Assembly: GCA_043813305.1 (NCBI GenBank)
Contig: JBDRLC010000042.1
Coordinates: 666-64,665 of the forward strand
DNA from: Candidatus Omnitrophota bacterium
GTDB taxonomy: Bacteria; Omnitrophota; Gorgyraeia; Gygaellales; Profunditerraquicolaceae
Reading direction: 5' to 3'
Length of the DNA: 64,000 nucleotides
Shown: one piece after another, positions 6,476 to 6,706 of the stretch
Layout: each line of letters begins with the position of its first letter
Position numbering within the stretch: the first letter of the stretch is position 1
The notes under the pieces: model-generated
Seen by the model: the letters and a program-made list of their open reading frames with translations, nothing else
Database searches by the model: none
Told to the model about the DNA's origin: nothing
Program-made: the position numbers and the translations under genes

Positions 6476-6706
6476 TTATCTTTTTTTTCTAAATTTTGCG
6501 GCTGCAAGTCCGGCTAAACCTATACCCAATAATGCTAAGGTAGTAGGTTCTGGATTGACAAGAGGTGCGCCTGATGCGCCTGTCGTTGTAGCACCATAGC
6601 TGGAAGAACTGGAAGAAAAACCAGAGACACTCGAGCCTCCCCCTCCGCTTCCGGAACAACCTGCAATTAAAATCATTCCCAATAAAATAAAAACGGCCTT
6701 ACGCAT
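6476..6706 (-). CDS. 76-aa lipoprotein/PEP-CTERM micro-protein
   Basis: ATG 6706 (TAATG coupling, AGGAG SD): MRKAVFILLGMILIAG-C17, Gly/Ser/Thr linker, NPEPTTLALLGIGLAGLAAAKFRKKR. Confidence 0.85.
   Translation of the reverse strand: MRKAVFILLGMILIAGCSGSGGGGSSVSGFSSSSSSYGATTTGASGAPLVNPEPTTLALLGIGLAGLAAAKFRKKR

Follow-up and report, generated by a model that had tools for sequence, protein, structure and literature searches.

Braun's lipoprotein (Lpp) is a small envelope lipoprotein that sits in the membrane by its lipid end and is bound covalently to an extracytoplasmic polymer through its C-terminus; it folds as a trimeric coiled coil, and its C-terminal lysine is linked to peptidoglycan by L,D-transpeptidases. 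The sorting enzymes of the archaeosortase and exosortase family act on tripartite C-terminal tags. In Haloferax volcanii, the S-layer glycoprotein has a Thr-rich, O-glycosylated stretch before its tag, and the tag is cut and replaced by a lipid, according to the sections of two reports drawn on here (PMC11980579, 10.1101/2023.06.07.544157). Many bacterial PEP-CTERM proteins, which end in a PEP motif, a transmembrane (TM) helix and a basic tail, contain Ser/Thr-rich low-complexity regions that point to glycosylation (10.1101/2023.06.07.544157, in part). Over-expression of one PEP-CTERM protein, PepA, is described in the excerpted text of PMC9850573 as lowering the amount of released soluble exopolysaccharide (EPS) and restoring flocs. 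What bacterial exosortases attach is treated as still an open question in the portion of PMC11980579 used here, two decades after the prediction of PEP-CTERM tags and exosortases. Here, we describe a 76-residue protein, P0001, encoded in a 64,000-nucleotide stretch of a Candidatus Omnitrophota bacterium contig (JBDRLC010000042.1, positions 666 to 64,665, assembly GCA_043813305.1; hereafter the window), which appears to combine a lipoprotein-type signal at its N-terminus with a PEP-CTERM tag at its C-terminus.

P0001 begins with a short n-region, M-R-K (R2 and K3), followed by a hydrophobic core that ends in L-I-A-G-C, with the Cys as residue 17. It passes the rule used for lipobox calls throughout, a PROSITE PS51257-type rule. 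The linker at residues 18-51 consists almost exclusively of Gly, Ser, Thr and Ala. It leads into P-E-P at residues 52-54, a 16-residue hydrophobic stretch (55-70) and the basic end K-F-R-K-K-R (71-76). The tag exceeds two curated cut-offs, scoring 24.5 bits with TIGR02595 (cut-off 16) and 28.7 bits with PF07589 (cut-off 20.7), which makes P0001 a PEP-CTERM domain protein. Its motif and conservation also place it in the bacterial lipoprotein class. Two named PEP-CTERM families matched P0001 in the tail only, at 25.8 bits for NF033554 (PepA; cut-off 80) and 26.2 bits for NF038125 (cut-off 85). An AlphaFold2 (AF2) model calculated with 50 family sequences contains helices at residues 2-15 and 54-74 only, with the linker as a coil at a block pLDDT (predicted local distance difference test score) of ~50; P0001 is therefore predicted to lack a folded domain. 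The initial annotation of this region had read the protein as a lipobox Cys17, a 34-residue spacer and a PEP-CTERM tag, with no folded domain, and had proposed TIGR02595 as a check on the tag. The translation and the profile score bear out this anatomy, and the AF2 model, with helices at the termini alone, agrees with the predicted lack of a fold.

Table 1 Features of the window referred to in the text. Positions are those of the window.
Feature	Position	Strand	Evidence or remark
Mini-protein gene P0001, 76 aa + stop	6476..6706	-	Translation; full-length family profile match
Shine-Dalgarno-like AAGGAG, within the 3' end of the transferase gene	6714..6719	-	Sequence read
Lipoprotein-type signal peptide, residues 1-16, with lipobox Cys17 (6656..6658)	6656..6706	-	Motif and conservation
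Gly/Ser/Thr low-complexity linker, residues 18-51, 34 aa, Gly run just past the Cys	6554..6655	-	Translation; AF2 coil
PEP-CTERM tag: PEP 6545..6553, TM helix 6497..6544, basic tail 6479..6496	6479..6553	-	TIGR02595, PF07589, AF2
Priming polyprenyl-phosphate glycosylphosphotransferase, 311 aa, stop overlaps mini-protein start	6706..7641	-	PF02397 229 bits; TIGR03025 297.3 bits (cut-off 295.55)
Internal PEP-CTERM-like module of the transferase, residues 93-121: A-P-E-P-S, TM, basic cluster	7279..7365	-	
Exosortase, 277 aa, the only one found in the assembly	23595..24428	-	PF09721 201.5 bits; TIGR02602 154.2 bits (cut-off 105.55)
EpsI-family exosortase partner	22978..23637	-	TIGR02914 80.8 bits (cut-off 42.8)
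Paralogous mini-protein P0005, 76 aa, lipobox L-A-G-C17, between NAD-epimerase and UDP-glucose dehydrogenase genes	55509..55739	-	
Larger PEP-CTERM protein P0002, 221 aa, signal peptidase I (SPI)-type signal, without lipobox, next gene past the mini-protein	5785..6450	-	
Terminator-like hairpin, 15-bp stem and T run, 3' of P0002	5681..5714	-	Consensus scan
Second larger PEP-CTERM protein P0003, start uncertain	4984..5604	-	
Membrane protein, 284 aa	3862..4716	-	No NCBIfam or Pfam match
Tetratricopeptide repeat (TPR) protein	3026..3862	-	Weakly PrsT/YbgF/BamD-like
Histidine kinase	1824..3023	-	PrsK/PrsR-like pair with response regulator
Sigma-54 response regulator	413..1831	-	PrsK/PrsR-like pair with histidine kinase
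O-antigen-ligase-like membrane protein	28599..29909	-	TIGR03097 76.7 bits, below cut-off 188.1

The open reading frame (ORF) list contained a longer, TTG-started frame (6476..6778) that includes the mini-protein gene. We favour the ATG at 6706 over the TTG at 6778 because the AAGGAG box lies 7 nt upstream of this ATG and because homologues in the family alignment start at the ATG position. In a TAATG junction, the last base of the sugar transferase stop codon (TAA) is also the A of this ATG. Thus, both the corrected start, giving 76 residues, and the translational coupling to the priming transferase that the initial annotation had proposed are retained. No ORF of at least 30 aa was found on the plus strand inside the gene, and a scan with Rfam returned no family overlapping it. 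The only tandem repeat in the gene is a single two-copy unit of 9 nt, which rules out the linker as a repeat array. Comparison of two further copies, P0005 and P0006, gave a ratio of nonsynonymous to synonymous substitution rates (dN/dS) of 0.20, from a single pair with dS of 1.2, near saturation; the adjacent epimerase gave 0.04. Family-wide conservation of both ends, the ribosome-binding site, the conserved operon position and the dN/dS of 0.20 together lead us to regard 6476..6706 as a real gene.

A profile built from P0001 and the two further copies in the assembly, searched against 5.8 billion proteins, yielded 109 small proteins at E ≤ 0.01. Of the matches at E ≤ 1e-5, 52 of 53 pass a combined lipobox and PEP rule, as do 10 of the 56 weaker ones, which are mostly generic tails. 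Fifty members, selected for having a lipobox, were combined in alignment A2. The PEP motif is invariant across the family alignment; G16 and C17 are also invariant in A2, where the selection for a lipobox applies, and the selection-free count comes from a search of 1.84 billion cluster representatives with the A2 profile. This search gave 13,061 matches at E ≤ 1e-3 and 291 at E ≤ 1e-10. The best 150 of these 291 comprise 27 long proteins with several tag-like stretches, 23 proteins already known and 100 new small ones (≤130 aa). Among these 100 new representatives, 96 pass the lipobox and PEP rule, and the remaining 4 show a lipobox-like x-x-G-C by eye. The Cys, on whose conservation the initial annotation had made its reading depend, is thus kept in both searches.

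Three long proteins from the A2-profile search, P0114 (2500 aa), P0115 (1375 aa) and P0116 (1328 aa), each contain 5-10 complete tags of PEP, TM and an Arg-rich end. Every tag runs straight, with no intervening Met, into a segment that resembles a signal peptide and has an A-x-A site, after which a new domain starts. These proteins resemble polyproteins from which exosortase and signal peptidase could release numerous PEP-CTERM proteins, or read-through gene calls.

Nearly all A2 members (49 of 50) match TIGR02595 at E ≤ 0.01, no NCBIfam model matches any of the 50 beyond the tail, and none of the curated NCBIfam models is dedicated to the family. NF058595 ('lipo-invert putative C-terminal anchoring domain') matches 7 of the 50 members weakly, through the signal peptide, the Cys and the Gly-rich start (best E 1.8e-4; P0001, E 0.33). 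The source names seen among the matches are 'hypothetical protein' or none. We calculated signature statistics for 159 members out of 210 small sequences, a set defined by the lipobox rule. The Cys is most often residue 17, and positions +3 to +7 relative to it are Gly in 97-132 of the 159. The linker is 29-81 aa long (median 43) and is composed of 23% Ser, 23% Gly and 7% Thr, with 8.9% Asp plus Glu and 1.9% Lys plus Arg. His occupies the position two residues before PEP (PEP-2) in 83 of the 159, and Asn the position directly before it (PEP-1) in 113. A truncated remnant of a larger PEP-CTERM gene is ruled out by the conserved length range and architecture. Since the same layout recurs in hundreds of sequence clusters, with the lipobox G-C and the PEP invariant, the architecture is beyond chance. 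Taken together, sequence comparison indicates that the mini-proteins are a widespread, conserved and so far unnamed family of lipoprotein-type PEP-CTERM proteins. They would constitute natural minimal exosortase substrates, with predicted mature peptides of ~37-47 residues, no fold, a lipid handle at one end and a processed tag at the other.

Comparison with other proteins revealed further distinctions. At the loci examined, the PEP-1 residue is I, V or T in 28 of 28 larger PEP-CTERM proteins versus N or Q in 11 of 14 mini-proteins, in a list that also held one spurious 72-aa frame. A lipobox is present in 10 of 10 mini-proteins versus 0 of 20 larger PEP-CTERM neighbours, two of the latter having been checked by eye for their starts. 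Finally, only 3 of the 61 lipobox candidates in the genome have a Gly/Ser run past the Cys, and all 3 are mini-proteins. These contrasts indicate that the combination of lipobox and PEP is a defined subclass and not a chance overlap of two common signals, and we assign the mini-protein tag, from its residues, to a distinct H-N/Q-PEP subclass. With a count of just 3 in 61, the Gly run cannot serve this host as a tether for lipoproteins in general.

The assembly (1.25 Mb in 65 contigs, 41.7% G+C, 86% complete, 6.5% contamination) contains only five true PEP-CTERM frames by pattern scan, and three of them share one layout, that of a mini-protein of 75-76 aa. Besides P0001, these are P0005 in the window, with a linker that is mostly Gly, and P0006 on a 3.6-kb contig (C52). 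P0005 and P0006 share a second gene context, with an NAD-epimerase and a UDP-glucose dehydrogenase, which also contains the copies at L004/L061, L006 and L017. The order on C52 (L002) is PGM, a 130-aa ORF, epimerase, mini-protein and UDP-glucose dehydrogenase. The epimerases of the diverged copies are 82% identical, with dS saturated.

To get a broader picture of the distribution, we searched 251 genomes spread evenly over the phylum (probably Omnitrophota) for full-length matches in small frames. The mini-protein was found in 11 of 62 exosortase-positive versus 0 of 189 exosortase-negative genomes, a plain count over related genomes that are non-independent samples. In all 11 carriers it lies on the exosortase contig, and in 6 of them at most 6 kb from the exosortase; one match (G243) contains an in-frame TAA. 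Ten of the 11 carriers, G141 being the exception, also have the form of the transferase that matches at 344 bits or more, which occurs in 22 sampled genomes. The mini-protein usually lies downstream of this transferase, which has an internal PEP module of its own. In one Omnitrophota metagenome-assembled genome (MAG; locus L058) it directly follows the transferase and overlaps its gene end, as in the window. In four genomes (G247, G274, G163 and G241) the transferase is followed by one PEP-CTERM gene and then by the mini-protein, with two such units in tandem in G163. At L062 and L064 the block runs deacetylase, family 2 glycosyltransferase, exosortase, EpsI, transferase, PEP-CTERM genes, mini-protein, membrane protein, TPR protein, kinase and regulator. 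Orthologues of the membrane protein follow the mini-protein at L062, L063 and L064. The position in exosortase operons is kept across families of the phylum.

A scan of genome contigs with a further profile (A3) retrieved mostly generic PEP-CTERM tails, with the small lipobox form at 2 of 46 loci, both in Omnitrophota MAGs; every named genome in which the mini-protein was found is an Omnitrophota MAG. The best named relative of the exosortase (55% identity) is labelled Candidatus Omnitrophica. A sample of 301 genomes of the phylum around G281, reached via a Desulfobacteraceae MAG (L040), gave no full-length match at E ≤ 1e-9, with up to 18 candidates scored per genome. The ESM Atlas label 'Thermodesulfobacteriota' for similar clusters has 4-7 members behind it and was not confirmed.

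The enzymes expected to process both ends are encoded in the assembly. The exosortase, 17 kb from the mini-protein within the window, falls below the cut-off of the XrtA model (TIGR03109, 160.5 bits versus 208) and is not classed as XrtA-type. Its residues C183, R228 and H249 are invariant in five orthologues. We take this Cys, Arg and His to be the family's catalytic residues. Adjacent genes on contig C59 encode Lgt (200.5 bits) and LspA (139.5 bits). The presence of an Omp85/BamA homologue (252 bits) indicates that the cell is diderm. A complex prediction of the exosortase (alignment A5) with residues 40-76 of the mini-protein (A2) returned a score of 0.00 and a mark of 0.32, which counts neither for nor against an interaction.

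Inspection of the priming transferase revealed a second PEP element at the locus. Ahead of its catalytic domain, the transferase contains an N-terminal TM segment, a poorly conserved loop of ~45 aa, A-P-E-P-S, a TM helix and a basic cluster. This module is oriented and built like a PEP-CTERM tag and scores under the thresholds of the tag models (TIGR02595 14.8 bits, cut-off 16; PF07589 16.2 bits, cut-off 20.7). A93-S97 (A-P-E-P-S) is invariant in five of five transferase orthologues. Of 28 transferase frames taken from the phylum, 21 have the module, as does L075; every match of at least 344 bits has it and none near 290 bits does. Transferases with the module are encoded in the window, at L062, L064, L066, L058 and L074-L094, and on contig C60 (C60:5028-5993). 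A homologue search with transferase residues 60-160 recovered the query itself only. The module suggests that the transferase may dock to, or be cut by, the exosortase, and it lends weight to the view that protein sorting is coupled to the priming of polysaccharide. Since the mini-protein occurs together with a priming transferase bearing its own PEP module, the data suggest that the two processes could be physically coupled in these very small-genome bacteria.

We propose that the mini-proteins are accessory parts of a compact exosortase/EPS operon that act as a covalent membrane-to-EPS tether, or as a glycan carrier, without a passenger domain, and we put the probability of this reading at about one half. 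The precursor would be exported by Sec and form a hairpin in the inner membrane, with both ends cytoplasmic and ~35 residues looped into the periplasm. Lgt would add diacylglycerol to Cys17 and LspA would remove residues 1-16. The single exosortase, with EpsI, would cut at or near PEP and, on the model of sortase and archaeosortase, transfer the newly formed C-terminus onto an acceptor. The predicted product is a disordered Gly/Ser/Thr lipopeptide of ~37 residues (family median ~47), held in the membrane by its N-terminal lipid, with its other end, and probably also Ser/Thr side chains, joined to a polysaccharide or protein matrix. Because such a product has no domain, whatever it does must depend on its length and on the nature of its two ends. 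Polysaccharide is the likely cargo, given the coupling to the priming transferase and the effect of PepA over-expression in Aquincola, which made released EPS cell-bound (PMC9850573, in part). The gene, its two signals and their conservation, the missing fold, the processing genes and the close genomic link to exosortase and priming transferase can be read from the data; every processing step, the acceptor and the tether or carrier role are what we infer from them. The initial annotation had already suggested such a product, a strap of ~35 aa with a lipid at one end and an exosortase-made link at the other that could be a tether, an EPS anchor or a glycan carrier; the large family, the two further copies, the tag subclass and the PEP module of the transferase go beyond it.

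Several observations weigh against this proposal. The mini-protein must be dispensable for the exosortase system, since just 11 of the 62 exosortase-positive genomes have it. Lnt and LolA were not found in the 86%-complete assembly and a LolCE-like match (338 bits) lies below its cut-off of 362, which bears on the final membrane and the acylation state of the product. The H-N-PEP tag is unlike the tags of the larger neighbours, and the single exosortase may handle the mini-protein differently or leave it uncut. A diverged operon copy on C60 keeps the PEP-module transferase without the mini-protein, the other PEP-CTERM genes or the kinase. C52 and C60 may be paralogous regions or belong to a second organism in the bin, which is estimated at 6.5% contamination, so that the copy number may be two plus one. 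A search of sequencing runs for window positions 5700-7700 listed no RNA run and one DNA run, from a groundwater metagenome, with a small share. Attachment by bacterial exosortases is itself stated as a suggestion only in the part of PMC11980579 used here.

The linker composition bears on a first alternative, that of a glycopeptide carrier only. The exosortase would simply hydrolyse off the C-terminal anchor, and a ligase-like enzyme of the locus would O-glycosylate the Ser/Thr linker, giving a surface lipoglycopeptide with no covalent C-terminal link. The family linker is 30% Ser plus Thr and nearly free of Lys and Arg, Ser/Thr-rich regions of PEP-CTERM proteins have been read as glycosylation sites (10.1101/2023.06.07.544157, in part), and the copies in the second gene context lie between nucleotide-sugar genes (epimerase and UDP-glucose dehydrogenase). 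The locus also has an O-antigen-ligase-like gene with a weak match to TIGR03097, the model for 'O-glycosylation ligase, exosortase A system-associated', but the match is well under the cut-off. Gly and Ser are equally frequent in the linker, several members are very poor in Ser and Thr, and mere removal would leave a conserved PEP-CTERM tag of a special subclass unexplained. We consider this alternative unlikely.

The divergent tag raises a second alternative, in which the protein stays in the inner membrane as an uncut hairpin and serves as a pseudo-substrate, regulator or assembly factor that occupies or organises a complex of exosortase and priming transferase. The systematic difference from the neighbouring true substrates (N/Q versus I/V/T before PEP) would fit this, as would the translational coupling to a transferase whose internal PEP module is presumably uncut, which suggests that PEP modules can dock here. 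It is hard to see, however, why a regulator would require an invariant lipobox Cys and a Gly run, and a linker of 29-81 aa with variable sequence fits a spacer better than a binding surface. This makes the uncut hairpin improbable.

The Gly run directly past the Cys is the strongest family-specific feature and is absent from the other lipobox candidates of the genome. By analogy, it could point to a lipid-anchored acceptor: if there is no Lnt, the free alpha-amine of diacylglyceryl-Cys-(Gly)n would take other PEP-CTERM proteins from the exosortase, and a mini-protein that is also a donor could chain or cyclise. The failure to find Lnt is in line with this, and the acceptor of bacterial exosortases is not established according to the available portion of PMC11980579. 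The idea is nevertheless pure analogy, the apparent absence of Lnt rests on an incomplete bin, and a protein in only 11 of 62 exosortase-positive genomes cannot be a general acceptor; we see little likelihood in it. Least probable by far is a spurious or untranslated ORF, a short, low-complexity frame that resembles two signals by chance and for which no RNA run is listed, since hundreds of clusters have the start, lipobox, tag and length range in common and the gene has a conserved exosortase-operon position, a ribosome-binding site and a dN/dS of 0.20.

The tether and acceptor ideas can be combined in a more specific and rather doubtful form. The mini-protein would be a lipid-anchored partner of the exosortase system, a ~40-residue diacylglyceryl-Cys-(Gly)n lipopeptide that the exosortase joins covalently, via its C-terminus or its free N-terminal amine, to nascent polysaccharide or to other PEP-CTERM proteins, with the polysaccharide supplied by the transferase docked through its PEP module. 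If true, a membrane would here hold its extracellular matrix by a novel mechanism, and the mini-protein would be the smallest natural exosortase substrate.

The window encodes a complete exosortase/EPS cluster that includes the exosortase, EpsI, glycosyltransferases, a deacetylase, the O-antigen-ligase-like protein and the priming transferase. Past the transferase, the order is mini-protein, P0002, P0003, the 284-aa membrane protein, the TPR protein, the histidine kinase and the sigma-54 response regulator. The kinase and regulator are below the equivalog cut-offs (TIGR02915, 414.2 bits, cut-off 502.6; TIGR02916, 94.9 bits, cut-off 300). The transferase, the mini-protein and P0002 are probably on one transcript, since the first strong terminator-like hairpin downstream of the transferase lies past P0002. 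In the promoter and terminator scan the site totals were not above those of shuffled sequences, and only two long hairpins, past P0002 and past P0003, were used. A sigma-54 promoter consensus gave 16 matches versus 10.8 expected, none of them upstream of the transferase.

The membrane protein belongs to a family of ~290 aa with no Pfam or NCBIfam family, with copies at L062 (10709..11587), L063 (1558..2445) and L064 (7688..8575) that are 31-48% identical to the window copy (3862..4716). In this operon type it always lies between the PEP-CTERM genes and the TPR gene. Contig C60 (1-10791) is a diverged copy of the left part of the window, with a big protein, GspC, a response regulator, the PEP-module transferase, a 291-aa membrane protein, a TPR protein and a sigma-54 regulator.

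Two large surface-type proteins are encoded in the cluster of the window (9330..13643 and 21411..22997, both on the minus strand). The first is a 1437-aa protein with a CFI-box-CTERM domain (NF041770, 100.1 bits, cut-off 40) and choice-of-anchor Q domains, and its gene adjoins a GspC-like gene (8689..9372). Directly upstream of the CFI-box-CTERM gene lies a cyclic di-GMP-I riboswitch (RF01051, 13658..13748, minus strand; 74.6 bits, gathering score 35). Since there is no strong terminator between the CFI-box-CTERM, GspC-like, response-regulator, transferase and mini-protein genes, the block from the CFI-box-CTERM gene to the mini-protein may respond to cyclic di-GMP.

In the portions of the PEP-CTERM literature covered here (PMC1569441, PMC11980579, 10.1101/2023.06.07.544157, PMC9850573, PMC7726332 and PMC4960237), neither a lipoprotein-type PEP-CTERM mini-protein nor a PEP module inside a sugar transferase is described; supplementary tables are outside this scope, and Table S4 of PMC4960237 (23 PEP-CTERM proteins), for example, could hold lipoprotein-type ones. 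The available part of Haft 2006 contains no mention of the transferase module. The joining of Lgt/LspA processing and exosortase sorting in one tiny protein, which the signals predict, likewise has no counterpart in these portions. The small size of the product would let intact-mass or top-down mass spectrometry reveal its C-terminal adduct, and hence what exosortases attach.

The known systems nearest to the mini-proteins include other PEP-CTERM/exosortase substrates such as the floc protein PepA. The mini-proteins share with these a C-terminal tag of PEP, TM and basic residues above the cut-offs, a Ser/Thr/Gly-rich region ahead of the tag, and an EPS locus with exosortase, EpsI, priming transferase, TPR protein and a kinase/sigma-54 regulator pair. 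They differ in the signal peptidase II (SPII)-type signal, the lack of a passenger domain and the H-N/Q-PEP form of the tag. The archaeosortase A/PGF-CTERM system of the Haloferax S-layer glycoprotein uses a homologous enzyme family. Unlike the mini-protein, it is archaeal, acts on a large passenger protein, places a lipid at the C-terminus and involves no N-terminal lipobox. MYXO-CTERM proteins sorted by myxosortase, such as TraA, are similar in combining a tripartite C-terminal tag with Cys lipidation, for which Lgt is a candidate lipid donor in the available portion of PMC11980579. Their Cys, however, lies inside the C-terminal tag and the protease is of the CPBP family, whereas the mini-protein has its Cys in an N-terminal lipobox and its tag is PEP-CTERM. 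Sortase A, with LPXTG proteins and lipid II pentaglycine, likewise pairs, in one system, an oligo-Gly peptide carried on a lipid with a tripartite sorting tag at the C-terminus, which is the basis of the acceptor analogy. The enzyme is unrelated, the system is Gram-positive and its N-terminal Gly is free, whereas the Gly run of the mini-protein follows the lipobox Cys. Finally, Lpp offers a working analogy for the tether that is functional only, with no sequence relation to the mini-protein. The linker of the mini-protein is predicted by AF2 to be disordered and without a helix, a cut at PEP would leave no C-terminal Lys, and the putative link would be made by the exosortase.

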